Origin: a bacterium
Lineage (GTDB): Bacteria > UBA8248
DNA length: 64,000 nt
Assembly: GCA_965203325.1 (NCBI GenBank)
Contig: OZ241875.1
Span: 1,280,001 to 1,344,000, forward strand
Reading direction: 5' to 3'
Below are positions 25,342 to 44,541 of this stretch, piece after piece. Position 1 is the first letter of the stretch; each line of letters begins with the position of its first letter. Both the position numbers and the translations under genes were made by a program. The notes beneath the pieces are model-generated. The model saw nothing but the letters and a program-made list of their open reading frames with translations. It was not told the DNA's origin and did no database searches.

Positions 25342-25522
25342 GGATCAACTCCCCCCTTGAGGGGGAGTCGACGAGGTAAGGGCGAAGCCCGCAAGCGAGT
25401 CGGTGGGGGGAGCTTTTATTTTAGAATCGTCCCCCCACCGAGTCAGCCTTCGCAAAAAACGCTCGGCTTCCTCGTCTGGCTTTCCCCTCGGGAAGCCAGA
25501 CCCTCAAGGGGGGAGTTGATCC
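25342..25522. repeat. MITE-like palindromic element, copy A
   Basis: 22-bp terminal inverted repeats GGATCAACTCCCCCCTTGAGGG / CCCTCAAGGGGGGAGTTGATCC, with internal hairpins GGGCGAAGCCC and CGGTGGGGGG...CCCCCCACCG. Confidence 0.8.
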
Positions 25523-28185: not shown

Positions 28186-28413
28186 TTAGTGAGTCCTCCT
28201 GAATACACAGTAGAAAAAGGGATTTTCCGTGAATTTCCGGCTTTCTCCGATTAACCTCCTTTCGTGAGCTTTTTTTTCGGGCCTTCACAAACTGGTGATT
28301 CGTATTTAGGGCCGCCTGGAATACGGCGGACTTGAACCCTTTCATGCTCCGGGCCGGTCGTGAGTCGTTCCGGGAGAGGCGGATTCCTTCGGTATGCGTC
28401 CCCCTTCCCCGGC

Positions 28414-28447
28414 CTGGGCGCCGGTAATTGATGTTATCGGCCCCCAG
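28414..28447. other. lox-like recombination site, left (14-6-14)
   Basis: CTGGGCGCCGGTAA-TTGATG-TTATCGGCCCCCAG. Arms are 12/14 complementary around an asymmetric spacer. Confidence 0.7.
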
Positions 28448-28569
28448 AAGCCCCGTTTTCCGCCGAAAAACCCGTTTCGGGGCGCATTCGGGCCGTATAT
28501 GAACGAAAAATAAGCGAAAAAAGGCGCAAAACGGCGCCCGAAACCCCTCCGGGGACCCCGGAATTGCGC

Positions 28570-28599
28570 TTGACATGGCCGTGAGAGGTGTTATATCTT
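28570..28599 (+). promoter_or_regulatory. Sigma70-type promoter inside the putative invertible segment
   Basis: TTGACA at 28570-28575. The -10 is TATCTT at 28594-28599 (18-bp spacer) or TG-n-TATATC (16-bp spacer). Phased A-tracts upstream. Confidence 0.65.
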
Positions 28600-28626
28600 C
28601 TGATAACATCAATTATCGGACTCCAG
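28593..28626. other. lox-like recombination site, right, inverted relative to the left site
   Basis: ATATCTTCTGATAA-CATCAA-TTATCGGACTCCAG. The spacer is the exact reverse complement of the left spacer, and 28600-28619 matches the reverse complement of 28421-28440 at 18/20. Confidence 0.7.
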
Positions 28627-28806
28627 AATACCCACTGCCTCGCCAGGAACTCCGCCTGCATTCGCTTGGAGGAACAGCTTTTTTTCTTGGAAATACGCCG
28701 TCGTCGTTTAAACTCCCCAATCGACGAGGCCCTTGAGCGAAACGAGGCGCTCGAACGGCTTTATGAATTGGAAACGGCCGCCGACCCGGAAGGTTCGCTT
28801 CTCTCC

Positions 28807-29730
28807 ATGACGACGGAGGCGACATCGCCCGTCCCGGCTTCAACGACGGCCCCGGTCCGCCCGGCCGCCGACCTGGCGAAGGCCTCGATGGCGAAGAACA
28901 CACGGCGGGCGTACGAGACGGCGCTCAGGGCGTTCGAGCGTTCGGGCCGCCCGGAGACCGACGCCGGGGTGGCGGCGTACCTGGGGGATCTCTACGAGGG
29001 AGGTCTGTCCGCGGCCGTAGCCTCCATGGCGGTCGCGGCGCTGCGCTTCCGGGCGAAGCTGGGCGGGTGGCCCTCCCCGGTGGGGGCGGCCGCCGAGCGG
29101 GTGCTGGCCGGCTTCCGGCGCCTGGCCGCGGAGCGCGGGAGCGGCCAGGTGACGGGGGTGCGCTGGGAGGAGGCGGACCGCGCGGCGACGCTGGCCGAGC
29201 GCTCGGGGACCCTGGGCGGCCTGCGCGACGCGGCGATCATCGCGGTGGCGAGCGACGCCCTGCTCCGGGTGTCGGAGGTCGAGGCGCTCGACGTCGCCGA
29301 CGTGGACCTGGGCGAGCAGACGGTGCTGGTCCGGCGCTCGAAGACGGACCAGGAGGGCGCGGGCGTCCTGCAGTTTCTGGGCGACCCGACCCTGGCGCGC
29401 GTCCGGGCCTGGCTCGAGGGGTCGGGTCTCGCAGAAGGAGCGCTCTTCCGGGCCGTCCACAGGTCGGGCCGGGTGCTGGCGGGGCGCCTGACGGAGAGGG
29501 GCATCCGGCGCATCATCGCCCACCGCGCGCGGGAGGCGGGCCTGGAGGGGCGCATCAGCGGGCACAGCCTCCGCGTGGGCAGCGCGCAGAGCCTCGCCAC
29601 GTCGGGGGCGTCGCTGGTCGAGATGCAAATCGCCGGCCGCTGGCGCTCGCCCGCCATGCCGGGGCGCTACGCGGAGGGCCAGCTCGCGAAACAGGGCGCG
29701 ACGGCGCGGCTGCGCTACGGCCCGCCGTGA
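28807..29730 (+). CDS. Cre-like tyrosine recombinase
   Basis: Catalytic set R ('LLRVSE'), K ('RRSKTDQ'), H-x-x-R ('SGHSLRVG'), W ('AGRW') and Y ('MPGRY'). N-terminal 'NTRRAY' core-binding domain. No arm-binding domain. Confidence 0.9.
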   Translation: MTTEATSPVPASTTAPVRPAADLAKASMAKNTRRAYETALRAFERSGRPETDAGVAAYLGDLYEGGLSAAVASMAVAALRFRAKLGGWPSPVGAAAERVLAGFRRLAAERGSGQVTGVRWEEADRAATLAERSGTLGGLRDAAIIAVASDALLRVSEVEALDVADVDLGEQTVLVRRSKTDQEGAGVLQFLGDPTLARVRAWLEGSGLAEGALFRAVHRSGRVLAGRLTERGIRRIIAHRAREAGLEGRISGHSLRVGSAQSLATSGASLVEMQIAGRWRSPAMPGRYAEGQLAKQGATARLRYGPP

Positions 29731-29740
29731 GGCAGCTCTC

Positions 29741-29877
29741 GGACAGGTACGGGGGCCTGTCCCTACGGGATCGGTGGCCGGAATGACGGGTGTTGTGATC
29801 TCTACAAAAGGGTGTCGTAGGGGCGCTTCGTGAAGCGCCCGTTTCTCCGGCAAGGGCCGTTCGCGAACGGCCCCTAC
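29741..29877. repeat. GTAG-type REP-like palindromes directly downstream of the recombinase
   Basis: GGACAGG-TACGGGGG-CCTGTCCCTAC (29741-29766) and the doublet GTAGGGGCGCTTCGTGAAGCGCCC...GGGCCGTTCGCGAACGGCCCCTAC (29817-29877). Confidence 0.8.
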
Positions 29878-30014
29878 AAAATCATGATTCCCTGGCCATG
29901 AACCCCTCAACCCCCCTTTCAGGGGATAAAGGCAACCCCCCTACCCCCCTTGTCGGGCCTGTTGAAAAACCCGGCGTTCGTCATCTATGGCGCGCTCTCC
30001 CCACCAAAGAGAAT

Positions 30015-30306
30015 TTCAAATCAACTCCCCCCTTGAGGGTCTGTTGAGAAAGCCTGGAACTCTGGATTTGTCGTATGTGACCGACCGACGAGAGAGAAAA
30101 ATCAACTCCCCCCTTGAGGGGGAGTCGGCAAGACGAGGGCGAAGCCCGAAGTCGCGCCGGTGGGGGGAGTTTTTTCTGTGGCATGTCCCCCCACCGAATC
30201 GACCTTCGCAAAAAACGCTCGGCCTCTTCGACTCCCCCTCAAGGGGGGAGTTGATTGCATATCTCGCGCGTGAAGGAATGCCCCTCAAGGGGGGAGTGAA
30301 TTTGAA
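30015..30306. repeat. MITE-like palindromic element, copy B (30100-30256), nested inside a second pair of the same terminal repeats
   Basis: Perfect 28-bp inverted repeats at 30100-30127 / 30229-30256. Outer near-perfect pair at 30015-30039 / 30282-30306. Confidence 0.8.
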
Positions 30307-30818
30307 CCTCGTCTGGGGAAGAAAGCCCGACCTTCCAGGAGCCGCCCCAAAAACCTTTTTCAAAGGAGCACCCCCCCCCTACCCCCCCTTAACAGGGGTC
30401 AAACGCGAGTGATGAACGAGCGTTTGCATGAGCCATTGACGAGAAACACATCGTCTTGCAAAACCTCCCTCTTCGGTCGGTTTTGACCCCTGTCAAGGGG
30501 GGCAGGACAGCCCTGAGGAGGGGCTGTCCTTTCAGGCTGAGGAAAGAGGCGTCGGCGGTTTCCGGGGAACGCATACAGGGCTTCCCCAACACCCCGCTCA
30601 TCGGAGAAAAACCGCATTTCAATCCTGTTGCAACATTCAGGCGCAGTCCTTATATTAAAAGTAGGAACACGTTCATAAAGAGCATGGCCGAGGTGGAGAG
30701 GACGCTTCCTTTCCGCGCCGGCGCCTCACCCATAAGGAGGAGATAAAACGACTCGGAACAGTTGACGACAGGGTTGCCGTGAGCCAATGCAAGATTTCGT
30801 GGGGGAGTTACCGCAATC

Positions 30819-31559
30819 ATGAGTACATTTATCCTGCCATTCGTTTTGTCCCTGCTTATTCTTCTCCTCCCGGACGCTTCCCTGGCGAAGTACAAGGTCG
30901 CATCCGTCAAAGACGGCGGAACCATCACCGGCAAAGTCAGCTTCGAGGGAAAGGTTCCCGCCCCCGTCAAATACATCATCACCAAGGACCAGCACGCCTG
31001 CGGCAAGGGCCAGGTCACCCGCCAGGAGGTGGACGCGAAAGACGGCGCGCTTAGAGGCGTCATCGTCTATCTCGACAAGGTCAAAAAGGGCAAGGCGTAT
31101 CCCGAGAAAATCAAGAGCGCCGTGGTGGACCAGAAGAAGTGCGCCTACGTGCCCTACCTCCAGGTCGTCGCCGAGGGGGGCAAGGTCACCATCCTGAACA
31201 GCGACGCCGCCCACCACAACATCCACACCTACGAGATCATCGGCCGGGCGAAGCGCTCCATGTGGAACATCTCCCAGCCCAGGCAGCGGAAGAAGGTCGT
31301 CCGCCGGGCGAAGGTGCGGCGCAGCCCCATCGTCCGGGTCGAGTGCGACGTGCACAACTGGATGAAGGGATTCCTCTTCGTGGCCCGGAACCCCTACTAC
31401 GCGCTCGTGGGCGCGGACGGGCGCTTCGAGATCGCAGACGTCCCGCCGGGGAAATACTCGCTCAGGGCGTGGCACCCGGCCCTGGGGGTCAAGAAGAAAA
31501 GGATCAAAATTTCCACCGGAGGAAAGAAGACGGCCGACTTCACGTTTTCTGCGAAATAA
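30819..31559 (+). CDS. Exported protein with carboxypeptidase-regulatory-like domain and a cupredoxin-like copper motif
   Basis: Signal peptide ending ASLA. Motifs 'GGTITGKV', 'DQKKCAYVP', 'NSDAAHHNIH', 'CDVHNWM', 'DGRFEIADVPPGKY.L.AWHP'. Confidence 0.7.
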   Translation: MSTFILPFVLSLLILLLPDASLAKYKVASVKDGGTITGKVSFEGKVPAPVKYIITKDQHACGKGQVTRQEVDAKDGALRGVIVYLDKVKKGKAYPEKIKSAVVDQKKCAYVPYLQVVAEGGKVTILNSDAAHHNIHTYEIIGRAKRSMWNISQPRQRKKVVRRAKVRRSPIVRVECDVHNWMKGFLFVARNPYYALVGADGRFEIADVPPGKYSLRAWHPALGVKKKRIKISTGGKKTADFTFSAK

Positions 31560-31811
31560 GACCGGATTTTCAACACGAGGAAGACCCGGGAAGATGAGAA
31601 CCGACCCGCATGCAGTGAAAACACTCGAGAAGCGAACCGTTCGGTTCGCATCCGCGGGTTCACCCGTCTCGTTTCGGGCCGCCGCCGGAGAACACGCCGA
31701 ATACGGCCCGATGGGGGCCGCCCGAAAAGCTTCCTTGACGAAAACCAACCCCCCCTACCCCCCCTTAACAGGGGGGCAAGAAAGAGCAACCCCCCTTGTA
31801 GAGCGCTCAAC

Positions 31812-31990
31812 AATCAACTCCCCCCTTGAGGGGGTCGGGCTTTCCCCTCGGGAAGCCCGACAGAGGCCGAGCGGTTTGTGCGAAGGCCGATGTGGTGGGG
31901 GGAGTTTTTATCCGTGGCATGTCCCCCCACCGAATCGCTTGCGGGCTTCGCCCTTAGCTCTTCGACTCCCCCTCAAGGGGGGAGTTGATC
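31812..31990. repeat. MITE-like palindromic element, copy C (interior inverted relative to copies A and B)
   Basis: Same terminal repeats ATCAACTCCCCCCTTGAGGGGG / CCCCCTCAAGGGGGGAGTTGAT. The interior reads ...CGCTTGCGGGCTTCGCCCTTA, the reverse complement of copy A's TAAGGGCGAAGCCCGCAAGCG. Confidence 0.8.
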
Positions 31991-32259
31991 CTTTTTTGCG
32001 GGGGGTGCTTTTTTATACCCCCCTGACAAGGGGGGGTAGGGGGGGCAGGACAGCCCCGAGGAGGGGCTGTCCTTTATCCCCTGACAAAGGGGGTTGGGGG
32101 GTCGAACGCGACCGGGGAGGGAGCGTTCGTTCCCTTGACAAAAACTTTTTCAACAACCCCGAAGGCCGGGGTCGATATTCTCATCCGGCGCGGACGGGCC
32201 GGATGTCCGATAGGGGATAGCGTCAGAAGACAGAACAGCCAGCCAGGGAGGTGCGAAGA

Positions 32260-33366
32260 ATGAAATCAGTTCGCGTTGACAGGCGCCGGATACTCTGCGG
32301 AGTCCTGCTGAGCGCCTGGGTTTTGCTCCCCGCCGCGGGCCAGGGGGCTGCTCTCGCGCCCCTGCCGGCGCCCAAGGCCCAGAAGCCCGCGCAGGCCGAA
32401 CTGGGCCGGTACCTGTTCTTCGACCCCCGGATGTCGGGGGACGGAGGGGTCAGCTGCGCCACCTGCCACCAGCCCGCGAAGGGCTGGGGCGACGGGCAGG
32501 CGCTCTCGGCGGGTTATCCGGGGAGCAAGTATTTCCGGAACGCCCAGACGCTCTTGAACGCCGCCTACAACAAGCGCGTCTTCTGGGACGGCCGCCTGAG
32601 CGGGGCCGACCTGCCCACGCTCGTGCGGGACCACCTGACCGAAGCCCACTTCATGCTGGTCGACGGCCGCCTGTTCCCCGAGCGCCTCAAGCAGGTGCCG
32701 CTTTATGTGAAGAAATTCAAGGAGGTCTACGGCGGAGAGCCCTCCTTCGGCGGCGCGCTCAAGGCCATCGCGGCGTTCCTGCACACCATCGCCTCCAAAA
32801 ACGCGCCTTTCGACAACTACCTGAAGGGCGACAAAAAGGCCCTTTCCGCCGAGGCGCAAAAGGGCCTCGCCCTGTTCAGTGGAAAGGCCGGATGCGTTCA
32901 GTGCCATAACGGCGCGCTATTGAGCGACGGCGGGTTCCACGCGCTCGGCGTCCCCGAGAACGAACAGATATTCAAGGACCCGCTGCGCCACATCACCTTC
33001 CGGCGGTTCAACAAGGTCATCGGCGTCCCCAACTTCATGAACCTGAGGGCCGACCCCGGCCTCTACGTCGTGACGAAACAGGAGAGCGACCGCGGCAAGT
33101 TCCGCACGCCGACCCTGCGCGAAGTCGCCCGGACGGCGCCCTACATGCACAACGGCGCACTCGCCGCGCTTGAAGACGTCGTCGCCTTCTACGACAGGGG
33201 CGGCGGGAGCGGCCCCAACAAGAGCTCGCGCTTGAAGCCGCTGGGGCTGACTGCGGATGAGAAGAAGGCCCTGGTGGCGTTCCTTAAGAGCCTCTCGGGC
33301 GAGACGGTTTCTGCTGCGGCGCCGAAAATTCCCGATTATGAACTTCGCAAACTCGGCGATAATTGA
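32260..33366 (+). CDS. Di-haem cytochrome c peroxidase/MauG family protein (IdrP-like)
   Basis: Signal peptide, 'LGRYLFFDPRMS', haem motifs CATCH and CVQCH, 'FWDGR', 'GKFRTPTLR', 'APYMHNG'. Confidence 0.88.
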   Translation: MKSVRVDRRRILCGVLLSAWVLLPAAGQGAALAPLPAPKAQKPAQAELGRYLFFDPRMSGDGGVSCATCHQPAKGWGDGQALSAGYPGSKYFRNAQTLLNAAYNKRVFWDGRLSGADLPTLVRDHLTEAHFMLVDGRLFPERLKQVPLYVKKFKEVYGGEPSFGGALKAIAAFLHTIASKNAPFDNYLKGDKKALSAEAQKGLALFSGKAGCVQCHNGALLSDGGFHALGVPENEQIFKDPLRHITFRRFNKVIGVPNFMNLRADPGLYVVTKQESDRGKFRTPTLREVARTAPYMHNGALAALEDVVAFYDRGGGSGPNKSSRLKPLGLTADEKKALVAFLKSLSGETVSAAAPKIPDYELRKLGDN

Positions 33367-33376
33367 GGAGACGGCC

Positions 33377-34516
33377 ATGAACGCGCGAATCAAAAACTGC
33401 TTCCTGGGTTCCACGATGGCCGTATGCTTCATCGCCGCTCTTCTGGTGGGAGGAGCAAGCGCGGCCCAGGAGGGGAAATTCCCTCCGCTGGGACCCTTGC
33501 CGCCTGTTCCGGTGCCCGCGGACAACCCCATGTCCGCCGCCAAGGTGGCGCTCGGCAAGCTGCTCTTCTTCGACGCCCGCCTCTCGGGCGACGCCAGCAC
33601 GTCGTGCGCCTCCTGCCACAGCCCCGAGAGCGGCTGGGGGGACGGGGGCGATCTGAGCCGGGGCTACCCCGGCACGCAGCACTGGCGGAACTCCCAGACG
33701 ATCCTCAATTCCGCCTACTACGCCAAACTGTTCTGGGCGGGCGAGTCTACGAGCCTCGAAGCGCAGGCGAAGAGCGCCGCCACGGGCAACGTGGCGGGCA
33801 ACGGCGACACCATGATGATGGAGGAGCGCCTGCGCCAGGTCCCCGAATACGTCAGGCGCTTCCGGGCGGTGTTCGGCTCCCCCTGGCCCACCATCGACGA
33901 CGCCTGGCGGGCCATCTCCGCCTTCGAGCGCACCGTGGTGTCGAACGCGAAGGACGTGCCCTTCGACCGCTTCATGAAAGGCGAGGAGAAGGCGCTCTCG
34001 GACAGCGCTAAGCGCGGGCTGGCTCTCTTCCAGGGAAAGGCCGGGTGCGTCCAGTGCCACAACGGCGCGCTTTTATCGGATGAGGACTACCACAACGTCG
34101 GCGTTCCCAGGAACCCCGCGTTCGAGGAAGACCCCTTAAGGCAGATAACGCTTCGCTACCAGCACGTCATCCGCGGCGTTCCCGAATCCGTCTACCGCAA
34201 GGCGGACCGGGACCTGGGGCTCTTCTACACCACCAAGCGCGAGGCCGATAAGGGGAGGTTCCGCACCCCGAGCCTTAGAGAGCTCAAATACACCGCGCCC
34301 TACATGCACAACGGCGCATTTTTCGAGTTGGATGAGGTCATCGATTTTTATGACGAAGGGGGCGGCGAGGACGCGAACAAGAGTCCCCTCATCAAGAAAC
34401 TGGGACTTTCGGACGAGGAGAAAGAAGACCTGCTGGCGTTTCTGGAATCGCTCTCGAGCGATAAGCCCCTGCTCGTCCGGCCCCCCGAACTGCCGCCGTA
34501 TGCGGCCATGCCGTAA
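33377..34516 (+). CDS. Di-haem cytochrome c peroxidase/MauG family protein (IdrP-like), second paralog
   Basis: Signal peptide, 'PADNPMS..KVALGKLLFFDARLSGD', CASCH and CVQCH, 'GRFRTPSLR', 'APYMHNG'. GAGGAG RBS. Confidence 0.88.
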   Translation: MNARIKNCFLGSTMAVCFIAALLVGGASAAQEGKFPPLGPLPPVPVPADNPMSAAKVALGKLLFFDARLSGDASTSCASCHSPESGWGDGGDLSRGYPGTQHWRNSQTILNSAYYAKLFWAGESTSLEAQAKSAATGNVAGNGDTMMMEERLRQVPEYVRRFRAVFGSPWPTIDDAWRAISAFERTVVSNAKDVPFDRFMKGEEKALSDSAKRGLALFQGKAGCVQCHNGALLSDEDYHNVGVPRNPAFEEDPLRQITLRYQHVIRGVPESVYRKADRDLGLFYTTKREADKGRFRTPSLRELKYTAPYMHNGAFFELDEVIDFYDEGGGEDANKSPLIKKLGLSDEEKEDLLAFLESLSSDKPLLVRPPELPPYAAMP

Positions 34517-34526
34517 GGAGGAATCC

Positions 34527-35069
34527 ATGACTCAGGAAGCCAAGGAAACCCGGCCTTGCGTCTCGCGGCGCGCCTTTCTCCTGGCCGGCGGAACCGCCGT
34601 GAGCATCGTGCTGGTCCAGGGCATCCCCGGCCTGGCCGGAGCGGCCCTGCAAAGGGCGGAGTATCCCCGCCAGAAAATCGGGACGCTCAGCGCCTTGAAA
34701 GTCGATGCGCCGCAATTCTTCCAGTACCCGTGGAAGGACGTCTTCTCGGGGTGCATGCTGGTCAAACTGGGCGTTCAAGCCGGCGGCGGCGTCGGTCCCA
34801 AGCGGGACGTGGTGGCGTTCAGCACCCTCTGCACCCACATGGGCGGCCCCCTGCAGGGAACCTATAACGCGCAGCACAAGGCCATCGGCCCGTGCCCGTT
34901 CCATCTGACGACCTTCGACCTGATGAAGCACGGCATGGTCGGGGCGGGGCAGGCCACCGAAAGCCTCCCCCAGGTGGTTCTGGAGACCCGAGGAGACGAC
35001 ATCTACGCGATCGGGATGATGGGGCTGCTGTATGGTTATCACTCGAATCTGGCGCCGGTACAGCGCTGA
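34527..35069 (+). CDS. idrB: Rieske [2Fe-2S] small subunit, IdrB/AioB family, Tat-exported
   Basis: Tat motif 'SRRAFLL'. Rieske ligands 'CTHMGG' and 'CPFH' lack the disulfide cysteines. Also 'GGGVGP..DVVAFS' and 'GQATESLPQV'. Confidence 0.75.
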   Translation: MTQEAKETRPCVSRRAFLLAGGTAVSIVLVQGIPGLAGAALQRAEYPRQKIGTLSALKVDAPQFFQYPWKDVFSGCMLVKLGVQAGGGVGPKRDVVAFSTLCTHMGGPLQGTYNAQHKAIGPCPFHLTTFDLMKHGMVGAGQATESLPQVVLETRGDDIYAIGMMGLLYGYHSNLAPVQR

Positions 35070-35081
35070 GGAGGACGCATC

Positions 35082-37748
35082 ATGGCAGGAAAGGTGACGA
35101 ACTACTATCTTGCGGAAGACAGTGTCCCCCTCCCCCCGCCGAACGCGGAGGTGTTCACCACGGCGTGCGACTACTGCATCGTGGGCTGCGGGTACAAGGT
35201 CTACCGCTGGCCGATCGGTCGCGAGGGCGGACCCAAGGCGAGCCAGAACGCCCTGCGCGTCGATTTCCCCACCGCCATCATGAGCGGCGGCTGGGTCAGC
35301 CCGAACATGCACAACATCATCATGGTGAACGGCAGTCCCCACCACGTCGTCGTCATGCCGGACAAGGATGCGAATGTCGTGAACGTGGGGGGGAACCACT
35401 CCATCCGGGGCGGCGTCCTGGCCAAGAAGCTCTACAACCCCAACGAACCCTCGCAGGACCGCCTGCGCCAGCCGATGATGCGGGTCCGCGGCACCTTGCA
35501 GGAGGTCTCGTGGGACACGGCGGTGGGCGTCATGGCGGGACTCTCGAAGCACGTCCTCGACAAGTACGGCGAACACGCCTGGGCCATGAAGACGTATTCC
35601 TATCAGTATTTCGAGAACACCTACGCCATCTCCAAGCTCGCTTTCCGCGCCATCGGAACGCCGGCCTACGCCCCGCACGACAAGCCGGGCCCCGGCAAGG
35701 ACACGCCCGGGATCGATTTTTCCGGCATCAACCCCTTCAGCGCCTCCTATGACGACTGGGGAGAGGCCGAGGTCATCTTCTTCTCGGGCGTCGACCCCTG
35801 GGAGACCAAGTCGGTGCTGTTCACCTCGTGGATCATGGGCGGGAAAACGCCGAGCAAGAAACTCGTCTTCGCCATGCCGCGCAAGACCTCGGGCGTGGCC
35901 TACGGCGAGAAGCGCGGCGGCCTCTTTCTCCCCGTCATTCCGGGGACGGACACGGTGCTCCACCTGGCCATCATCCGCCTGATTCTGGAGAACGGCTGGG
36001 AGGACAAGGAGTGGATCGCGCGAAAAATCTCGAACAAGTGGGAGATCGGCTCCGGCATGGGCCGCGGCACCCGCAACACGCCCTGGCAGTGGGTCACGAC
36101 CTGGGGCAAGTACGGGACGGACTTCGAGGGCTACAGGAAGTGGATCATGAGCTACCCCTACGCCGAACTGGAGAGGGCCGCGAAGATCACCGGCGTGCCC
36201 GCGGCGTCCATCCGCCAGACGGCGGAAATACTCGCCAAGCCCAAAGCGGACGGAACGCGCAAGAAGACCTCGTTCATGCTCGAGAAGGGCAATTACTGGT
36301 GCAACAGTTTCGGGAACACGGCTTCCTTCGCGGCGCTGGGGCTGGTCTGCGGCGCCGGGTCGCGGCCGGGCCGGGTGATCTCCCGAGGCGGTGGACACCA
36401 GCGGGGCTGGATGGGAGGGGCCGGTTATCCGAGGAGCCTGTCGCCGGAGAAGGCGCCGGGGCGCCGCAAGAAGGAGATCGACCTCGACCGCTGGGTCGTG
36501 GACGGCCATGTGCGCTTCGCATGGGTCATCGGGACCACCTGGTGCCAGGCCATGGCGGCGTCTCAGGAGTTGATGGACGTCTTCCAGCGATTGACGCGCC
36601 GCAACCCGCACCAGATCGAGAGCTTCGACGTCGATACGGCGGTGGATGCGCTGAAGCGGCGGACGGACGCCGGCGGCATGGTCGTCGCCCACCAGGACAT
36701 CTACCCCGTTTCCCCGATCGGAACCGAGTATGCGGACCTGGTGCTCCCGGCCGCCACCTGGGGCGAGGAGGACTTCACCCGGTGCAACGGCGAGCGCCGC
36801 CTCAGGCTCTACAGCAAGTTCGCCGACCCCCCCGGAGAGGCCCGGCCCGACTGGTGGATCATCGCGGCCTTCGCGCGGAAGATGGGCTTCAAGGGCTTCG
36901 ACTGGAAGGACAGCAACCAGATATTCGAGGAGGCGGCCCGCTTCGGCCGCAAGGGGGTGCTCAACTACCACCCGCTCGTGGTGAAGGCCAAGCGCGAGGG
37001 GAAACGAGGCCACGAGCTGCTCCGCGAATACGGGACCGGCGGCATCCAAACCCCCATCCGCATGGTCAAGGGCGAACTCGTCGGTACGAAGCGCCTCCAC
37101 GACGAGACCCTGGAACTCGGAACCCCCGAGGGACCCACAATGCACCGGAAATGGCTCACCTCCTTCGGCACCCAGAGCGGCAAGGCGGTCTTGCTGAAAA
37201 GCTACTGGGAGGATTTCAAGGATTTCTACGATCGGGTCACCCCGCAGGGAGACGAGCTGTGGGTGACGAACGGCCGGATCAACGAGCTCTGGCAATCCGG
37301 CTACGACGACAAGCGGCGGCCCTACATCATGCAGCGCTGGCCCCAGCAGTTCCTGGAAATTCACCCCAAAGACGCCGGCGCCCGGGGCATCGAATCAGGA
37401 GACCTGGTGGCCATCGAGAACGACGACCTGCTCGTGCAGACGGGCGGATACATCGGCGTCGACGGCAAGGAGCAGACGTTCACCGAGCTCATGAAGGCCG
37501 GGAATATCAAGAAGAGCAAGGGGAGCTTCACCGCTGTGGCCATGGTCACGGACGCGGTCCGGGAGGGCGTCACCTTCGCCTATTTCGGCTTTCCCGAGAA
37601 CCCGGCGAACTCGGTGGTCCACCGGGTGCCGGATCCCCTGACCAACCGCTACCGCTACAAGCTGGGCAAGGGGAAATTGAAGAAGATAGGAGAATCTCCG
37701 CACAAGCATTCGCTGACGAGCTTAAGCTTCGTCCCCCGGACGCTTTGA
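35082..37748 (+). CDS. idrA: DMSO-reductase-family molybdoenzyme large subunit, IdrA (iodate reductase) clade / arsenite-oxidase-like
   Basis: 'VPLPP.NAEV.TTACDYCIVGCGYKVYRWP' ([3Fe-4S] C-x2-C-x3-C plus 'HSIRGG' Ser), 'MKTYSYQYFENTYAISK', 'GRGTRNTPWQW.TTWG', 'EKGNYW', 'RGGGHQRG'. Lacks the AioA 'HNRPAYNSE' motif. Flanked by two peroxidases. Confidence 0.75.
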   Translation: MAGKVTNYYLAEDSVPLPPPNAEVFTTACDYCIVGCGYKVYRWPIGREGGPKASQNALRVDFPTAIMSGGWVSPNMHNIIMVNGSPHHVVVMPDKDANVVNVGGNHSIRGGVLAKKLYNPNEPSQDRLRQPMMRVRGTLQEVSWDTAVGVMAGLSKHVLDKYGEHAWAMKTYSYQYFENTYAISKLAFRAIGTPAYAPHDKPGPGKDTPGIDFSGINPFSASYDDWGEAEVIFFSGVDPWETKSVLFTSWIMGGKTPSKKLVFAMPRKTSGVAYGEKRGGLFLPVIPGTDTVLHLAIIRLILENGWEDKEWIARKISNKWEIGSGMGRGTRNTPWQWVTTWGKYGTDFEGYRKWIMSYPYAELERAAKITGVPAASIRQTAEILAKPKADGTRKKTSFMLEKGNYWCNSFGNTASFAALGLVCGAGSRPGRVISRGGGHQRGWMGGAGYPRSLSPEKAPGRRKKEIDLDRWVVDGHVRFAWVIGTTWCQAMAASQELMDVFQRLTRRNPHQIESFDVDTAVDALKRRTDAGGMVVAHQDIYPVSPIGTEYADLVLPAATWGEEDFTRCNGERRLRLYSKFADPPGEARPDWWIIAAFARKMGFKGFDWKDSNQIFEEAARFGRKGVLNYHPLVVKAKREGKRGHELLREYGTGGIQTPIRMVKGELVGTKRLHDETLELGTPEGPTMHRKWLTSFGTQSGKAVLLKSYWEDFKDFYDRVTPQGDELWVTNGRINELWQSGYDDKRRPYIMQRWPQQFLEIHPKDAGARGIESGDLVAIENDDLLVQTGGYIGVDGKEQTFTELMKAGNIKKSKGSFTAVAMVTDAVREGVTFAYFGFPENPANSVVHRVPDPLTNRYRYKLGKGKLKKIGESPHKHSLTSLSFVPRTL

Positions 37749-37795
37749 TGGAGATGGAGGTTTACACAGGCCCGTAGAACCGCGAGGGAGGTTGA

Positions 37796-38182
37796 ATGCG
37801 AATGTCTCGATCGAGAGGATTCATCATCTGCGCAGGCCCTGCGCTCGCAGTGGCGTTCTTTTTCTGGTCTTCGGATGACGGGGCCGCTCAGCAGAAAGGC
37901 GACGTTGCGGCCGGCAACGTCAAATACCAGCAGCTTTGCGCCTCCTGCCACGGTGCATCGGGCAAGGGCGACGGCCCCGCAGCCAAGGCGCTCAACCCGA
38001 AGCCGAGGAATCACACCGACGCCAAATACATGAAGACCATATCGGATGAGTACATCGCCAAGATCACCAAGCTTGGCGGCGTCGCGGTAGGAAAATCGCC
38101 ACTGATGCCCCCCTGGGGCGGGGTTCTTTCGGACGCGGACCTCCAGAACCTGGTCGCGTTCATGCGCTCCCTGGCGAAATAG
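37796..38182 (+). CDS. Periplasmic mono-haem cytochrome c
   Basis: Signal peptide, 'CASCHG..GKGDGPAA', 'PKPRN', distal 'MPPWG'. Confidence 0.88.
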   Translation: MRMSRSRGFIICAGPALAVAFFFWSSDDGAAQQKGDVAAGNVKYQQLCASCHGASGKGDGPAAKALNPKPRNHTDAKYMKTISDEYIAKITKLGGVAVGKSPLMPPWGGVLSDADLQNLVAFMRSLAK

Positions 38183-38192
38183 GACCGCGGGC

Positions 38193-40238
38193 ATGGATTC
38201 CGGGAATCGGGACCCTCTCCCTCCCGAGCGCTCTTTTCGGGTCGAGTTGCCCGGCCACGACCACTGGCGGAAAACGATTTGCTGTCAGGACGCGTGTCCC
38301 GTCCATACGGACGCGCGGGGTTACGTGACCGCCATCTCGGAGGAAGACTTCGAGCGCGCCTACATCATCGCCCGGGGGCCCAACCCCTTCGCGTCGGTTT
38401 GCGGGCGTGTCTGCGCGGCGCCGTGCGAAGCGGCGTGCCGCCGCGGCAACATCGATGCGCCGGTGGCCATCCGGGCGCTCAAGCGATTCGTGACGGAGCG
38501 CTACGGGGTCGAGGCCGATTTGTCGTCCGGCAAGGGAGAATCCTCCTTCTCGCACCGGAGCCTCAGGAGTATGCGCGACCTCCGTTTTCAGCCCGCCACG
38601 CGCACCATCAACGATTTTTCGGTGCTGGAGGCGGCCCGCCGAAAGCCAGAACAGGAAAAGACGGCAGGAAAAAAGGTGGCCGTCGTCGGATCGGGCGTGG
38701 CGGGGCTGACCTGCGCCCACGATCTCGCCCTGCTCGGCTATGACGTGAGTGTTTTCGAGAAACAGGGAGTCCCCGGCGGCATGCTCATGCTCGGGGTTCC
38801 CGAATACCGCCTTCCGCGTGATCTTGTTCAGGCCGAAATCCAGGCCATCCTCAGCCTGGGCGTGGAGCTTCGGCTGAACCAGGCCATCGGGCGGGACTTC
38901 AACCTCTCCTCTCTTCGCGAGGAAGGCTTCGAGGCGGTGTTCGTCGCCATCGGCGCGCACGTGAGCCGCTCTCTCCCCATGGAAGGACAGGACGCGGACG
39001 GCGTTTTCCGGGCCGTCGAGTTTCTGCTGAACGTGAACCTGAACTTCCGCGTCGATCTGGGCGAGCGCGTCGTCGTGATCGGCGGGGGGAACGTGGCCAT
39101 GGACGCCGCCCGGGTCGCCGCCCGGGTCGCCGGCGGGGCGGACGCCCCCGCAAGCGCCGCCGATCAAACCGAAGACGCCGTCCTCATGCGGGAGATGATG
39201 GACGTGGCTCGGGAGGCGATGCGCGTGGGAGCGAGGAACGTCCACGTCATCTGCCTGGAATCGCGCGACGAGATGCCGGCGGCGGATTTCGAGATTGAAG
39301 AAGCGCTCGATGAGGGGATCGATCTCGAGCCCCGGGTGGGGCCCGTCCGCATCATGGAGAAAGAGGGCCGTGTGGTCGGGCTGGAAGTCCAGACGTGCAC
39401 CCGCGTTTTCGATGAGGAAGGCCGCTTCAGCCCCGAATTCGACCCGGACTGCAAGCGCGTGATTCCGTGCGATTCGGTGATCGTCGCCGTCGGCCAGGCC
39501 TCCGATCTCTCCTGGATCAGCGAGGAAGACGGCGTCGAGACGACGCCGCGCGGGACGATCCGCGTCGATTCCGAAACCCTGGCCACGACCGCTCCGGGCG
39601 TGTACGCGGGCGGGGACGTCGCCATGGGCCCCCGGATATTCATCGAGGGCGTGGAGAACGGCCACCGCGCCGCCCGCTCCATCCACACTTATCTATCCGG
39701 CGGTCAGGCAGGCGTCCAGACGCATCTTCAGTGGGCCTCCATCGAACCCTTGCAACAGGCGCTGCTTCAGGAACCGGGAGACGGGTTTTCCTTGCCCATC
39801 GTCAACCCCGGATACCAGAAAGTGTCTCGCCGAAACCCCGACGCGCTGCCCATCGAGCGCCGAATCGGCGTCACCGAGGTGGAGTTAGGTTATTCGCCCG
39901 AGGAGGCCGTCGATCAGGGGCTCCGGTGTCTGCGCTGCAGCGCAAACCCGATCTTCGACGGCGCCAAGTGCATCCTCTGCGGCGGCTGTGTGGACGTGTG
40001 CCCGTCGCGCTGCCTTCGAATGGTTCCCTTGGAAGCCCTCCAGGGTGGAGAAGACCTGGCGGCTCTGGTCCAGGCCCGCTTTGGCACGTCCGCCGGGGCC
40101 GCAGGAGAGAGGGGCGCGGCGATGATCATGGACCCGGACAAGTGCATACGCTGTTCGCTCTGCGCGCAGCGCTGTCCCACGGGCGCCGTCACCATCGAGA
40201 ATTTTTCTTTCCAGGAAGAGTGGGTGGAGATCGGATGA
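38193..40238 (+). CDS. Cytoplasmic FAD/NAD(P)H-dependent iron-sulfur oxidoreductase (GltD/NfnB/DsrL-like) with C-terminal 2[4Fe-4S] ferredoxin domain
   Basis: N-terminal 'CQDACP' and 'CGRVCAAPCEAACRR', FAD 'GSGVAG', 'PEYRLP', NAD(P) 'GGGNVAMD', 'AGGD', then 'CLRC', 'CILCGGCVDVCP', 'CIRCSLCAQRCP'. No signal peptide. Confidence 0.88.
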   Translation: MDSGNRDPLPPERSFRVELPGHDHWRKTICCQDACPVHTDARGYVTAISEEDFERAYIIARGPNPFASVCGRVCAAPCEAACRRGNIDAPVAIRALKRFVTERYGVEADLSSGKGESSFSHRSLRSMRDLRFQPATRTINDFSVLEAARRKPEQEKTAGKKVAVVGSGVAGLTCAHDLALLGYDVSVFEKQGVPGGMLMLGVPEYRLPRDLVQAEIQAILSLGVELRLNQAIGRDFNLSSLREEGFEAVFVAIGAHVSRSLPMEGQDADGVFRAVEFLLNVNLNFRVDLGERVVVIGGGNVAMDAARVAARVAGGADAPASAADQTEDAVLMREMMDVAREAMRVGARNVHVICLESRDEMPAADFEIEEALDEGIDLEPRVGPVRIMEKEGRVVGLEVQTCTRVFDEEGRFSPEFDPDCKRVIPCDSVIVAVGQASDLSWISEEDGVETTPRGTIRVDSETLATTAPGVYAGGDVAMGPRIFIEGVENGHRAARSIHTYLSGGQAGVQTHLQWASIEPLQQALLQEPGDGFSLPIVNPGYQKVSRRNPDALPIERRIGVTEVELGYSPEEAVDQGLRCLRCSANPIFDGAKCILCGGCVDVCPSRCLRMVPLEALQGGEDLAALVQARFGTSAGAAGERGAAMIMDPDKCIRCSLCAQRCPTGAVTIENFSFQEEWVEIG

Positions 40239-40239
40239 C

Positions 40240-40731
40240 ATGACTGCGAGCCTGGATGAACAGACCCCCCGGCGCCGGATGCTGCTGGGGCTCGGCTGGG
40301 TTTCCTTCCTGATTTCCCTGCTGGGTCCGGTTCTCGCCAACGTCCGGTTCCTGTTCCCCAACGTCGTTTATGAGGGCGAATCGGTTCTGAAGCTCGACTC
40401 CCTGGATAAGTACCCCGTGGGGTCCATCACGTTTTTCGCCGAGAAGAAAATCGTTCTGTTTCGCGAGAAGGACGGGTTCCGTGCCTGCACCGCCGTCTGT
40501 CCGCATCTCCGTTGCGTGATCAGCCCCTTCGTCGGCGCGCCCGGCGCCTCTCCCGATATATTGAGGGCCCGGTGCCCCTGCCACGGCAGCACGTTCGACG
40601 GGCGGGGACAGGTGCTCGGGGGGCCTGCGCCTCGCGGTCTCGACTTTTTCCTCGTAAAGAAATCGCCCGATGGCCGCGTCGTGGTCGATACGCGCAAAGT
40701 CGTCGCCCCCTCCGAACATTTCAAGATCTGA
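40240..40731 (+). CDS. Rieske iron-sulfur subunit of a Rieske/cytochrome b complex
   Basis: Tat-like anchor 'RRRMLLGLGW...', 'CPHLRC', 'CPCHGSTFD', 'GPAPRGL'. Confidence 0.88.
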   Translation: MTASLDEQTPRRRMLLGLGWVSFLISLLGPVLANVRFLFPNVVYEGESVLKLDSLDKYPVGSITFFAEKKIVLFREKDGFRACTAVCPHLRCVISPFVGAPGASPDILRARCPCHGSTFDGRGQVLGGPAPRGLDFFLVKKSPDGRVVVDTRKVVAPSEHFKI

Positions 40732-40740
40732 GCCACCACG

Positions 40741-42237
40741 ATGGTCACCGAACCCACACGGAAACCAGGACGCGGAAAAGCCGTATCGTGGCTCAGGAAA
40801 AACCGCGTCGTCCGCTCGATCTTCCGCCGCGGTTATCCGGACAACGATCTGGATCGCGCGGCCGTCATGTTCTCGAATTTCTTCCTGCACGTCCTTCCCG
40901 CGCGAACGCACGTTCACAGCCTGAAACCCACCTACACCTGGGGGCTCGGGATCATCTCCCTGTTCTTGTTCATCATTCTTCTGGGCACCGGCTCCTTACT
41001 CATGTTCTTCTACGTCCCCTCGACCGAGCGCGCCTACAGCGACATGAAGGACCTGCAATTCGTTGTCTCCTACGGTGTCGTCCTGCGGAACCTCCACCGC
41101 TGGGCTGCGCACGCGATGGTCGCCGTCGTCTTTTTACACATGTGCCGCGTGTTCTATACGGCAAGTTATAAAGCGCCGCGTGAGTTCAACTGGGTCATCG
41201 GGGTGCTCCTCTGGGGGGCGACCCTGATGATGAGCTTCACGGGCTACCTCCTCCCCTGGGATCAACTCGCCTATTGGGCCATCACCGTCGGGTCGAGCAT
41301 CGCCAGCTATCCGCCCCTGGTAGGAGAGCACATCCGCACGCTGATGCTCGGCGGCGATACGGTGGGGCAGAACGCGCTGATCCGGTTCTACGTCATGCAC
41401 GTCATCGTCCTGCCGGGGATCATGATGATTCTCATGGGCGTCCATTTCTGGCGGATACGCAAGGACGGCGGCCTCTCCCGGCCGCCCACGCCGCCCTCCG
41501 AGGCCGCCCGGGGCGAGGCAGCGGCTTTTTCGCCGCACAAGACGTACATGCTCGTGGAACTCGCCGAGGGCAAGACGCCCATGGTGGATGCGCAGGCCCC
41601 CGAAGAAGAGGTCATGAGCTGGCCGCACACGGTCTTCCGGATGCTGGTCGTCTTCGTGGGCGTCGTGGCCGTCCTCTCCGCCGTCGCCTACTTCTTCGAT
41701 GCGCCTTTGGAGGAGCTGGCCAACCCGGACCATCCGCCCAACCCGGCCAAGGCGCCCTGGTATTTTCTCGGGCTTCAGGAAATCGTGAGCTATTCCGCCC
41801 TGGCGGGGGGCGTCATCGTTCCCGCCGCCGCGATCATCGGCCTCATGACCATTCCCTACGTCGACCGGGACCCCGAGGGCCAGGGAACCTGGTTCACCTC
41901 GGGCCAGGGCCACCGGATCACGCTCTGGTCGGTCGTGGCGGTCATCCCGGTCGTCCTCGTCCTGACCTGGCTGAACGAGCACTACGCCGTGCGGATACTG
42001 GTTCCGGGCGCCTCGCAGATCTGGGTCGACCTCCTGAATCCGGGGACCATACTGATCGTCCTCTTCGCCGCCGGGTCGCTCTACATCTGGCGGCGGACGG
42101 GGTCGAGCCGGATGGGGGCGTTGGCCCTGTATTCTTATTTTCTGACGTCTTATCTGATTTACACGTTCATCGGGCTGTATTTCCGGGGCGCCAACTGGGC
42201 CTGGATATGGCCGTGGCAGGCGACGGGCCTGCACTGA
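40741..42237 (+). CDS. Cytochrome b (b6-like) fused to a subunit-IV-like domain with extra C-terminal helices
   Basis: Haem His pairs 'RNLHRW...FLHM' and 'VMH-x14-HF', '[10 protein letters not shown]', Qo-site variant 'KAPWYF'. Confidence 0.9.
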
Positions 42238-42249
42238 GGCGGATGACGA

Positions 42250-43065
42250 ATGGCGAATTCCAATCACAACGATTCCCATGTGCCGTTCGGGTGGGTGGTC
42301 GCCTTCGCCGTCCTGAGCGTATGCGCGGCGTTGTTTTTTCTGCTGTCCGTCTGGAAGGATTACGACCGCGAATGGCGGGGATACCAGCGGACGTTCCGTG
42401 AGATGCTCGTCGAAAGAGCCGGAACCGAAGAGGAGCGCAAGGCCGCTCTGGCGGGCGGGGATCAGTTCGAGCAAATCATCGTGGCCGGCGGCGAGCGTGT
42501 GGACAGGTGCGTCATGTGCCACCGCGGCGTCGAGCACCCGGCGTTCAAGGACGCCGACCAGCCTTTCGCCAGGCATCCCACCATCCCGCCGCACCCCTTC
42601 GAGCGGTTCGGCTGCACCGTGTGCCACCAGGGCCAGGGCCGGGCGACGAGCGTCCAGGACGCCCACGGCGAAGTCGCGTTCTGGGAGGAGCCGCTGCTGC
42701 GGGGAGGGTTTATCCAGGCCAGTTGCGGCCCTTGCCACGCTGGGGCTCTCAAAGACGCCCCCCTCATCCAGAGGGGCAAGCTGCTTTATCTGATGAACGG
42801 CTGCCTCGCCTGCCACAAGATCAGGGGCGCCGGCGGGGTCGTCGGGCCCGACCTGACCTTCGCAGGCGAGCGCAAGAAGGACCCGAAGTGGCACATCGAG
42901 CACTTCAAGTTCCCGCAAAAGGTTTCGCCCGGCTCCGCCATGCCCGCCTACGGCCATTTGAAGCCTGAGGATCTCGAAGCGCTGACGGTCTACATGCTGA
43001 GCCTCCGCAGGGCGCCTTCCGCCCTGGCGCTGGCCGCGCCCAGGCCCGCCGCCGGGAAGAAATAG
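42250..43065 (+). CDS. Membrane-anchored tetrahaem cytochrome c (c1-equivalent of the Rieske/cyt b complex)
   Basis: N-terminal TM helix and four CxxCH motifs (CVMCH, CTVCH, CGPCH, CLACH). 'GPDLT' and 'PGSAMP' in the last domain. Confidence 0.85.
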   Translation: MANSNHNDSHVPFGWVVAFAVLSVCAALFFLLSVWKDYDREWRGYQRTFREMLVERAGTEEERKAALAGGDQFEQIIVAGGERVDRCVMCHRGVEHPAFKDADQPFARHPTIPPHPFERFGCTVCHQGQGRATSVQDAHGEVAFWEEPLLRGGFIQASCGPCHAGALKDAPLIQRGKLLYLMNGCLACHKIRGAGGVVGPDLTFAGERKKDPKWHIEHFKFPQKVSPGSAMPAYGHLKPEDLEALTVYMLSLRRAPSALALAAPRPAAGKK

Positions 43066-43068
43066 CCT

Positions 43069-43096
43069 GCAGGGACAGGTCGCGACCTGTCCCTGC
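43069..43096. repeat. REP-like perfect palindrome at the operon end
   Basis: GCAGGGACAGGTCG-CGACCTGTCCCTGC, with a near-identical copy at 50787-50814. Confidence 0.75.
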
Positions 43097-43170
43097 CTTC
43101 AGCGCAAAGGCCCTCCCGCATTGCCCAGAGAGAGGCTGCGCGCCAGTTCCGCCTCCCCTCCTCCGAACGC

Positions 43171-43464
43171 CTACTCCTCCGGCTCGTCATAGGAGATGAA
43201 CGTGATGTCCACCGCCTCGTTGCGGCCGGGGATCAGGGCCTGGTAGCCGTCCGAGTAATACCATTTCTCCACCGCCTCCTGATCGGGGAACTTGAGGAGG
43301 ACGAACATTTGCCTGTCGTGCTCGCCGGTGAGGACTTTTACGAGTTGTCCGCTCGCCGCCACCTCGCCGCCGACGGATGCGACGATTGCGAGCCCCTGCT
43401 CGGCGTAGCTGTTGAAGCCTTCTTCGTCCTTGACGGTGATGTGTCCGACCACGTATGCGCCCAT
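43171..43464 (-). CDS. DUF1330 family protein
   Basis: 'MGAYVVGHITVKD...Y', 'VLLKFPD..AVEKWYYS..YQ.L...R' pattern, 97 aa. Confidence 0.8.
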   Translation of the reverse strand: MGAYVVGHITVKDEEGFNSYAEQGLAIVASVGGEVAASGQLVKVLTGEHDRQMFVLLKFPDQEAVEKWYYSDGYQALIPGRNEAVDITFISYDEPEE

Positions 43465-43968: not shown

Positions 43969-44484
43969 ATGAAAAAACGAGACGTATTCATTAGCCTGGC
44001 TGTCCTGATGATGGCCGGCGCACTCATCGCCGGCTGCGCGGGCGAGGGGATGATGGACAAGAAGATGATGGGCAAGAAAAAGATGATGAAAGGCGGCGAG
44101 GACCCCGCCGTCACCGCGCGCAAGAAGCTCATGCGCGGCATCGGCGCCGACATGAAGCGTCTCAGAACCGCGATGAAACAAGGCAGCGGCTGGGTGGTCG
44201 AGGAGCAGGTGCGCCAGGCCGCAGGCAACATGTACAAGAAGGCGAGCAAGATCAAAAAGGCGTTCAAGAAGAACACCCTGGCGGGCAAGACGACATCCGT
44301 CGCCGCCATCTGGAAAGACAAGCGGAAATTCGCTCTCATCGCGGACGGCCTGGCCGCGAACGCCGCCGCCCTGGCGCAGATCCACTACAAGGGCGGTCCG
44401 GCAGCCATCAAGAAGGCGGTGGGCCTCATCGGCAGGCAATGCGGCGCATGCCACAAGTCGTTCCGAAAAAAGAAGAAAAGATAG
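43969..44484 (+). CDS. Cytochrome c' (class II cytochrome c), predicted lipoprotein
   Basis: Lipobox 'LIAGC', 'ARKKLM', 'AIWKD...F', C-terminal CGACH. Confidence 0.8.
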   Translation: MKKRDVFISLAVLMMAGALIAGCAGEGMMDKKMMGKKKMMKGGEDPAVTARKKLMRGIGADMKRLRTAMKQGSGWVVEEQVRQAAGNMYKKASKIKKAFKKNTLAGKTTSVAAIWKDKRKFALIADGLAANAAALAQIHYKGGPAAIKKAVGLIGRQCGACHKSFRKKKKR

Positions 44485-44503: not shown

Positions 44504-44541
44504 AGAAGCCCCGGCGCGCGCCGCCGGGGTTTTCTTATTTT
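44504..44541 (+). terminator. Intrinsic terminator after cytochrome c'
   Basis: AGAAGCCCCGGCG-CGCGC-CGCCGGGGTTTTCT followed by TATTTT. Confidence 0.7.

Follow-up and report, generated by a model that had tools for sequence, protein, structure and literature searches.

The window analysed here, a 64,000-nucleotide stretch of contig OZ241875.1 from a bacterium of the lineage UBA8248, contains a block of nine co-oriented genes on the + strand (32260–43065) in which an iodate-reductase-type (idr) cluster, idrP2-idrP1-idrB-idrA, is directly followed by five genes for a Rieske/cytochrome b complex bearing a flavoprotein. The idr cluster and this type of module are each already known, and the pairing of the idr genes with a membrane complex of their own suggests how the enzyme gets its electrons. 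Our tentative reading is that the block may form one respiratory unit on a mobile island, in which the iodate-type reductase IdrAB would be fed by a dedicated complex performing quinol bifurcation.

Content of the nine-gene block

All nine open reading frames (ORFs) are present in the window, with gaps of 10, 10, 12, 47, 10, 1, 9 and 12 base pairs (bp) in order, and both Pfam and NCBIfam agree with the domain assignment of every gene. The first (32260–33366) encodes an idrP2-type dihaem cytochrome c peroxidase with a signal-like N-terminus (PF03150, E = 8e-42; two CxxCH motifs), and the second (33377–34516) an idrP1-type dihaem cytochrome c peroxidase, assigned from PF03150 (E = 9e-43), two CxxCH motifs and synteny. 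They are followed by the idrB-type Rieske small subunit (34527–35069), exported by the twin-arginine translocation (Tat) pathway (TIGR02694, 123 bits; twin-arginine motif SRRAFL; cluster ligands CTH...CPFH), and by the idrA-type catalytic subunit (35082–37748), a protein of 888 amino acids with an N-terminal 3Fe-4S domain and a molybdenum bis(pyranopterin guanine dinucleotide) (Mo-bisPGD) site (PF18465, PF00384, PF01568; TIGR02693). SRRAFL on IdrB and the hydrophobic N-termini of both peroxidases read as periplasmic signals, of Tat type in the first case and of Sec type in the second.

The second part of the block opens with a periplasmic monohaem cytochrome c (37796–38182; PF13442, PF00034; one CxxCH). 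Next comes a cytoplasmic, NAD(P)-binding flavin adenine dinucleotide (FAD) protein of NfnB/GltD-like type (38193–40238; 681 amino acids), which has a 4Fe-4S domain at its N-terminus and a 2x[4Fe-4S] ferredoxin domain at its C-terminus, and in which no signal peptide was seen. A membrane-anchored Rieske protein (40240–40731; PF00355), a cytochrome b of 498 amino acids in which b6 and subunit IV are fused (40741–42237; PF00033, PF13631, PF00032) and a membrane-anchored tetrahaem cytochrome c (42250–43065; four CxxCH, an N-terminal hydrophobic helix, and FixO, Cytochrom_C and c7-like matches) complete it. The starts of the second and third genes of the block were set from the onset of the signal peptide and from the point where the homologue alignment begins.

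A consensus hairpin scan within 32260–43065 found only stems of 5–9 pairs and no strong terminator-like hairpin, and a promoter scan of the locus returned one site where 1.8 were expected. Long antisense ORFs at 34392–37364 and 41134–42957 were rejected as genes, being artefacts of high G+C. A preliminary description of this DNA, which had listed nine co-oriented genes with gaps of 1–47 bp, is borne out in its ORFs, domains and coordinates; the nine genes are there as it said, but it overlooked a conserved cupredoxin gene upstream (30819–31559) and the insertion of approximately 24452–43163 that encloses the whole.

The idr cluster and its molybdenum subunit

On sequence, the molybdenum subunit is a deep branch of the IdrA clade, outside the arsenite oxidase subunit AioA. 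In a maximum-likelihood tree (LG+G4, 56 rows, with the Shimodaira–Hasegawa-like approximate likelihood ratio test (SH-aLRT) as the only support), it lies inside a 40-row Idr clade with SH-aLRT support of 96, together with proteins of Vibrio, Moritella and Sedimenticola and of Rokubacteria, NC10, Lindowbacteria and Pirellulaceae, whereas four canonical AioA representatives and several intermediate lineages fall outside. The phylogeny of the 888-residue subunit, which the preliminary description had set as a check, thus places the protein apart from canonical AioA and upholds the Idr type that it had proposed. Denitromonas IR-12 and Pseudomonas SCT, both confirmed to reduce iodate, have no IdrA among the tree rows. 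Neither was among the best 120 rows of a search with a proteobacterial representative, where the names were Vibrio, Moritella, Sedimenticola, Marinobacter and others, so the label of the clade rests on the taxa named by Reyes-Umana et al. 2021 (PMC8692401). Passages of that paper list Planctomycetaceae, Rokubacteria, Lindowbacteria and NC10 as the deeper IdrA members, and Vibrio, Moritella and Sedimenticola among the idr carriers.

Family scores and pocket motifs point the same way. On the NCBIfam arsenite-oxidase model TIGR02693 (cut-off 359 bits), the window's protein obtains 452 bits, compared with 854–1193 bits for canonical AioA representatives and 386–405 bits for proteobacterial Idr-type proteins; its best relatives in the PDB are solved AioA chains (E ~1e-81). 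Its identity to proteobacterial IdrA members is approximately 51–53%. Residues HD.P...GGHQRG mark the pocket of the Idr clade where AioA has HNRP...GGHQEG; the window's subunit carries HDKP...GGHQRG and lacks the HNRPAYNSE and GGHQEG of AioA. With the proteobacterial Idr proteins it shares HD.P and GGHQRG, while Gly and Asp stand where those have Ser (or Ala, Gly) and Ser. Pocket positions are given here in the numbering of Alcaligenes faecalis AioA. Among the relatives retrieved are also long fused or multidomain proteins: representatives of 1100–2100 amino acids (P0139, P0159, P0161, P0163, P0168, P0180, P0197) match the AioA/IdrA-like protein over its N-terminal half with 35–38% identity.

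The gene order had been taken for a departure from known idr clusters, which proved wrong, since the order P2-P1-B-A is found in 59 of the 62 assessable loci (among 76 related genome loci, those with sufficient upstream sequence), the idrP2-type peroxidase holding the first position in those 59. According to Zhu et al. 2022 (PMC10989891), Pseudomonas sp. SCT, Denitromonas IR-12 and Ca. M. iodofontis share this order; the order in the window is therefore the canonical one. According to passages of PMC8692401, idrABP1P2 is kept in all neighbourhoods of the idrA clade. A third dihaem peroxidase gene of the same genome lies elsewhere, beside another cytochrome c gene (G000 3691260–3693319).

The Rieske/cytochrome b module

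Judged from their sequences, the five genes that end the block (for monohaem c, flavoprotein, Rieske, fused cytochrome b and tetrahaem c) are a separate module whose homologues are those Rieske/cytochrome b complexes of anammox bacteria that include an NAD(P) oxidoreductase. Among solved structures, the best match of the Rieske protein is to 9rk4 (E = 2.4e-15), which outscores a cytochrome b6f Rieske protein; 9rk3 is also matched (E = 1.8e-9). In Table 1 of PMC12954380, 9rk3 stands under the heading Kustd1480 and 9rk4 under ‘Kustd4569’, the second protein being named Kuste4569 in the running text. The Rieske box of the window's protein, CPCHGSTF, repeats the Ser/Phe pattern seen in Kustd1480. 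The best-scoring solved structures for the flavoprotein are those of 9bov/9bp5 and of NfnA (E = 7e-81 and 3e-79, respectively), and 9bp5 is given in passages of PMC12954380 as the fold match for the Kuenenia reductase subunit, printed ‘Kustd4570’ there and Kuste4570 elsewhere. This comparison with Kuenenia passed through the PDB relatives of the Rieske protein and the flavoprotein. The complexes described in those passages consist of a Rieske protein, a cytochrome b, a multihaem cytochrome c and a cytoplasmic NAD(P) oxidoreductase; a passage of Dibrova et al. 2017 (PMC5600118) adds that such oxidoreductase genes adjoin cytochrome b genes ‘in many other cases’.

Across 10 homologues of the cytochrome b, the haem-b histidines H119, H133, H220 and H235 are invariant, as is an N-terminal H50 (NFFLH), and the quinol-site motif PEWY is replaced by APWY. 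The topology read from the sequences is that of a cytoplasmic flavoprotein, with the Rieske domain, the cupredoxin, Idr and both cytochromes c on the periplasmic side. Elsewhere in the genome lies a canonical split set of Rieske, b6 and subunit IV genes, without a flavoprotein gene (G000 4281917–4283610), so the idr-linked complex would be a second Rieske/cytochrome b complex of this bacterium.

Linkage of the module to idr genes

The module was found in 14 of the 64 idr loci with enough flanking sequence: 12 from close kin, and two more distant ones. In the first of these (L022, 77% IdrA identity), it stands upstream of idrP2, and in the second (L038, Calditrichaceae, 59% IdrA identity) downstream of idrA; a genome from another family of the phylum (G007) shows the nine-gene order unchanged. 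Idr and module are thus adjacent in three gene arrangements. Within the phylum (51 genomes surveyed), the flavoprotein gene occurs in 20 genomes and idrA in 17, all 17 idrA-positive genomes also having the module; both are side by side on one contig in 15 of these 17, G007 among them.

Contigs from metatranscriptomic libraries bear on the same junction. Those from four libraries (two studies), 90–99% alike, lie on almost the whole block, although in single runs parts of it are without cover. Contigs at 36596–39432 (X19) and 37257–38373 (X20), approximately 95% alike, bridge idrA, the cytochrome c gene and the flavoprotein gene, and further ones bridge P2-P1, P1-B-A, flavoprotein-Rieske-cytochrome b and cytochrome b-tetrahaem c. 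Near-identical sequences occur in libraries labelled sponge and marine metagenome. Word depth in X20 and X21 was 40–129 over 31500–32307, compared with 0–60 across the nine-gene block.

Outside this lineage, the module has other company. In a metagenome scan with the flavoprotein alignment, a Rieske or cytochrome b gene was directly downstream in 49 of the 53 assessable loci, and both in 48, and idr-like genes were found in none of the 80 metagenome module loci within the flanks examined. Among 28 loci tested for genes downstream of the module, nosZ was directly downstream in two and a cd1-type nitrite reductase gene in one. In 10 of these 28 soil or wetland loci (L138, L139, L149, L153, L161, L162, L168, L178, L188, L194), the largest ORF just downstream, of 420–505 amino acids, had no Pfam match at E 1e-10; such ORFs could be candidates for an unrecognised periplasmic partner enzyme of the module family. 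In sister genera, the modules of genomes G040, G048 and G050 have a monohaem cytochrome c 69–75% identical to that of the window. An Rrf2-family regulator gene precedes each stand-alone module there (L123 11496–11963, − strand; L124 6149–6787; L125 8538–9023), and none precedes the window's block.

Since the module is widespread without idr, yet accompanies it in 17 of 17 genomes of the phylum, we regard it as a portable unit that is tied to idr in this lineage. The synteny search finds the downstream five genes linked to idr in other genomes, and RNA-library contigs bridge the junction, so that neither of the refuting conditions set by the preliminary description applies. The further idea of an electron-transfer chain that is idr's own does not hold for the module family at large, whose members mostly stand without idr and in sister genera stand alone.

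The island and its cupredoxin gene

Compared with congeners lacking idr, the window carries an insertion of approximately 18.7 kb (24452–43163) that takes in the whole nine-gene block together with the cupredoxin gene, an integrase gene and dispersed repeats. In one such congener (G023), the enoyl-CoA hydratase gene, whose match ends at window position 24451, and the DUF1330 gene, whose match starts at 43164, are 74 bp apart; in another (G033), the same two genes are 267 bp apart. With these junctions empty in both congeners, idr and module are present or absent together.

The integrase gene (28588–29730, + strand) encodes a recombinase of the phage integrase family (PF00589, E = 2.5e-17). A further congener without idr (G021) has an integrase stretch 82% identical to it at the same chromosomal site, within approximately 8.8 kb (G021:C1:1530693–1539512) that contain neither idr nor module, which suggests that integration has recurred at this place. 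No tRNA gene that could serve as an integration site was found in 15000–55000.

Inside the island, a cupredoxin gene (30819–31559, + strand) precedes the block as a possible tenth partner. Its product, in which a CarboxypepD_reg-like beta-sandwich comes after a secreted cupredoxin domain, is a candidate blue-copper electron carrier: the residues H133, C176, H179 and M182 (C-x2-H-x2-M) are invariant in 21 aligned homologues, one of which passes the Pfam Copper-bind (PF00127) threshold with 34 bits, and the AlphaFold model (predicted local distance difference test (pLDDT) 90.5) leads in Foldseek to amicyanin, pseudoazurin and plastocyanin (E ~1e-5). Homologues occur in 28 of the 76 idr loci. They include an ORF between the module and idrP2 in L022 (56% identity) and one between idrA and the flavoprotein gene in L038 (30% identity). 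Of the 68 assessable module loci free of idr, 40 also have a homologue, placed immediately upstream of the flavoprotein gene. It is plausible that this protein is the carrier between the complex and IdrAB. The genome has a second cupredoxin paralogue, 37% identical (G000:C1:1938061–1938714).

Other features of the island and its border are the following. A dispersed repeat of approximately 170 bp, with a palindromic core and GC-rich hairpins, lies at 25348–25516, 30027–30250 and 31750–31988, and has dozens of matches both in G021 and in the genome of the window itself. Two ORFs at 29987–30412 and 31594–32220 were rejected as genes; they have no family matches, and they are taken as read-through of dispersed repeats because their translations have dozens of further matches across the genome. 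Just outside the insertion, a cytochrome c' gene (43969–44484; PF01322) adjoins the DUF1330 gene (43171–43464, − strand) and is followed by a strong terminator-like hairpin (44505–44533).

Proposed electron path and alternative explanations

From gene content, homology, clade, linkage, co-occurrence, insular position and presence in RNA libraries, we infer a substrate, a physical assembly and a whole electron path with its direction. IdrAB, as a periplasmic molybdenum enzyme, would reduce iodate or a closely related high-potential oxyanion, and IdrP1 and IdrP2 would clear a reactive by-product, the role proposed for them in characterised idr systems. The second, dedicated Rieske/cytochrome b complex encoded directly downstream would supply the electrons by oxidizing quinol at its outer site. 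The first electron would pass from the Rieske protein to the tetrahaem cytochrome c, then to the monohaem cytochrome c and/or the cupredoxin, and through IdrB to IdrA; the second would travel across the b haems to the cytoplasmic Fe-S flavoprotein and NAD(P)+. The high potential of iodate would thereby pay for NAD(P)H, by a bifurcation such as that proposed for the homologous anammox complexes. For these, passages of PMC12954380 propose quinol bifurcation to NAD(P)+; the Kustd1480 Rieske protein was measured at +335 mV, and potentials as high as this would, in the authors' argument, allow NAD(P)+ to be reduced. The place of the module beside nosZ or a cd1-type nitrite reductase gene at a few other loci fits this reading as well.

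Several observations weigh against this reading. In the same passages of PMC12954380, the role of the anammox complexes ‘remains unclear’. The published Kuenenia models there include haem c(n), and its CxGG motif is absent from all 10 aligned cytochromes b of the module, which have WGLG, LGLG, FGLG or variants in its place. A complex prediction for cytochrome b with flavoprotein residues 500–681 speaks for their assembly, but weakly: it scored 0.47, in the weak band (best of three controls, 0.00). Of 157 solved complexes, 116 reach the mark on the scale used, as do 2 of 215 mismatches; no more than 18 of the solved complexes, but both mismatches, do so with a score at or below 0.60. Contacts agreed among runs to at least 84%, with a partner pLDDT of at least 71. 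As for the metabolism, no RuBisCO large subunit was found in the genome, which is 95.5% complete, and the citrate-binding domain of ATP-citrate lyase reached 26–27 bits, its two matches falling narrowly on either side of the 26.8-bit cut-off; as no marker of autotrophy was found, no special need for NAD(P)H made by reverse flow is seen, and the genome has one haem-copper oxidase. The module, moreover, is not specific to idr, since within the same phylum its five genes follow an Rrf2 regulator gene, with no idr, in G040 and in G050, and lie on a different contig from idr in G048. The RNA-library contigs do not in themselves show strand or a single transcript, and DNA carry-over is uncontrolled in them. 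Finally, at the position of AioA Glu203 the window's protein and its deep-branch kin have Asp where proteobacterial Idr has Ser, so that a different substrate is possible for the deep branch.

The metabolic points bear on the direction of flow. NAD(P)H could instead be the donor, with electrons entering at the FAD and moving along the Fe-S chain until they reach the b haems together with an inner quinone site, and with an ordinary Q cycle and then the Rieske protein, the tetrahaem cytochrome c and cytochrome c or cupredoxin leading to IdrAB, in a self-contained NAD(P)H:iodate chain, the first option of the preliminary description. Such a scheme shares its gene content and topology with bifurcation, its direction is thermodynamically easy, and NAD(P)H is likely to be plentiful in a genome that looks heterotrophic and capable of aerobic life. 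However, flow outward through the b haems dissipates membrane potential unless the inner quinone site works, and none is demonstrable from the sequence; the genome already has its canonical Rieske/cytochrome b set, and the published reading of the homologous complexes, in the passages of PMC12954380 cited above, favours NAD(P)+ reduction. We therefore consider NAD(P)H as donor somewhat unlikely and favour, with due caution, quinol bifurcation to iodate and NAD(P)+.

A second alternative concerns the enzyme. The deep-branch protein might not reduce iodate, acting on another oxyanion instead, or might oxidize arsenite or another reduced compound with the module running in reverse. The Asp at the Glu203 position, a score above the NCBIfam AioA cut-off and the position of the Denitromonas IR-12 and Pseudomonas SCT proteins outside the tree sample are compatible with this. 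Yet the protein lies, apart from canonical AioA, inside a clade defined by idrP2P1BA synteny, and has the HD.P and GGHQRG residues of the proteobacterial type. Two peroxidase genes stand alongside, as they do in idr loci and unlike in aio loci, according to passages of PMC8692401, a source that also counts the deep lineages named above as IdrA; PMC10989891, for its part, treats the NC10 member as an iodate reductase. Another substrate is thus improbable. Of the preliminary view of a self-contained module linking NAD(P)H and the quinone pool to iodine chemistry, the Idr type and the linkage stand, while its variant of substrate oxidation with reverse flow is without support here.

That module and idr are mere neighbours on one island, a general second bc-type complex beside an IdrAB that draws on any reduced soluble carrier, including those from the canonical complex, is less probable still: modules alone or apart from idr in the sister genera, the 0/80 count in metagenomes, the 50 of 64 assessable idr loci with no module within the flanks examined and the Denitromonas model (passages of PMC8692401), which feeds idr through an ordinary bc1 complex, all fit it, but it has against it adjacency in three gene orders from separate lineages, the 17/17 co-occurrence with joint gain or loss, and gaps of 1–47 bp with no strong terminator and with RNA contigs across the junction.

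Quinol bifurcation, if it operates here, invites a wider and more doubtful generalization: iodate respiration would be hard-wired to it, and the same module with its cupredoxin would serve as a general device that bacteria couple to periplasmic reductases of high potential (Idr, NosZ, cd1 NirS and the HAO-like enzyme of anammox bacteria).

Comparison with known systems

In our literature search, no paper was found that joins idr with a Rieske/cytochrome b/NAD module or an iodate reductase with a cupredoxin, nor, in a search on iodate with sponge and Nitrospinota, any paper on that combination. The nearest known system is IdrABP1P2 of Pseudomonas sp. SCT as well as of Denitromonas sp. IR-12, also predicted in Ca. 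Methylomirabilis iodofontis. The order idrP2-idrP1-idrB-idrA, the Tat signal on IdrB and the 3Fe-4S and Mo-bisPGD sites of IdrA are the same, whereas the window adds a five-gene Rieske/cytochrome b complex downstream and a cupredoxin gene upstream, and its IdrA differs from proteobacterial IdrA (51–53% identity) by Asp for Ser at one pocket position. Electron supply to iodate reductase has so far only been modelled, with an ordinary bc1 complex; this genome spells out a candidate chain, acquired and lost along with the enzyme.

The preliminary description knew of no characterised operon composed like this one, but comparable flavoprotein-bearing Rieske/cytochrome b complexes have already been described for anammox bacteria. 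Kuste4569-4574 and Kustd1480-1485 of Kuenenia stuttgartiensis likewise unite in one operon a Rieske protein with a cytochrome b of b6 type, an NfnB-like Fe-S flavoprotein of the cytoplasm and a multihaem cytochrome c, and have a high-potential reductase as partner. In the window, by contrast, the c subunit has four haems where those have six or eight, an HAO-like subunit is missing, the cytochrome b is fused and without the CxGG motif, the partner is an Idr-type molybdoenzyme, and the organism is not an anammox bacterium. The role of the anammox-type complexes has been unclear since their discovery, and a second partnership with a very high-potential acceptor, together with a shared cupredoxin, narrows the possible functions and offers new systems for testing NAD(P)-linked bifurcation.

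The modules linked to clade II nos genes and the related ones of soil bacteria have the same order of flavoprotein, Rieske, cytochrome b and multihaem c, often with a homologous cupredoxin gene just upstream, but their partner is NosZ or an unassigned protein rather than Idr, and their flavoproteins are 43–59% identical to that of the window. The arsenite oxidase AioAB, lastly, shares the subunit architecture and the pocket residues His195, Arg419 and His423. The window's protein differs from it in lying outside the AioA clade, in its TIGR02693 score (452 versus 854–1193 bits), in having HDKP/GGHQRG for HNRP/GGHQEG and in the two flanking peroxidase genes. Idr genes annotated as arsenite oxidase occur in a lineage whose near-identical sequences are seen in libraries labelled sponge and marine metagenome, where RNA-library contigs lie on almost the whole block.

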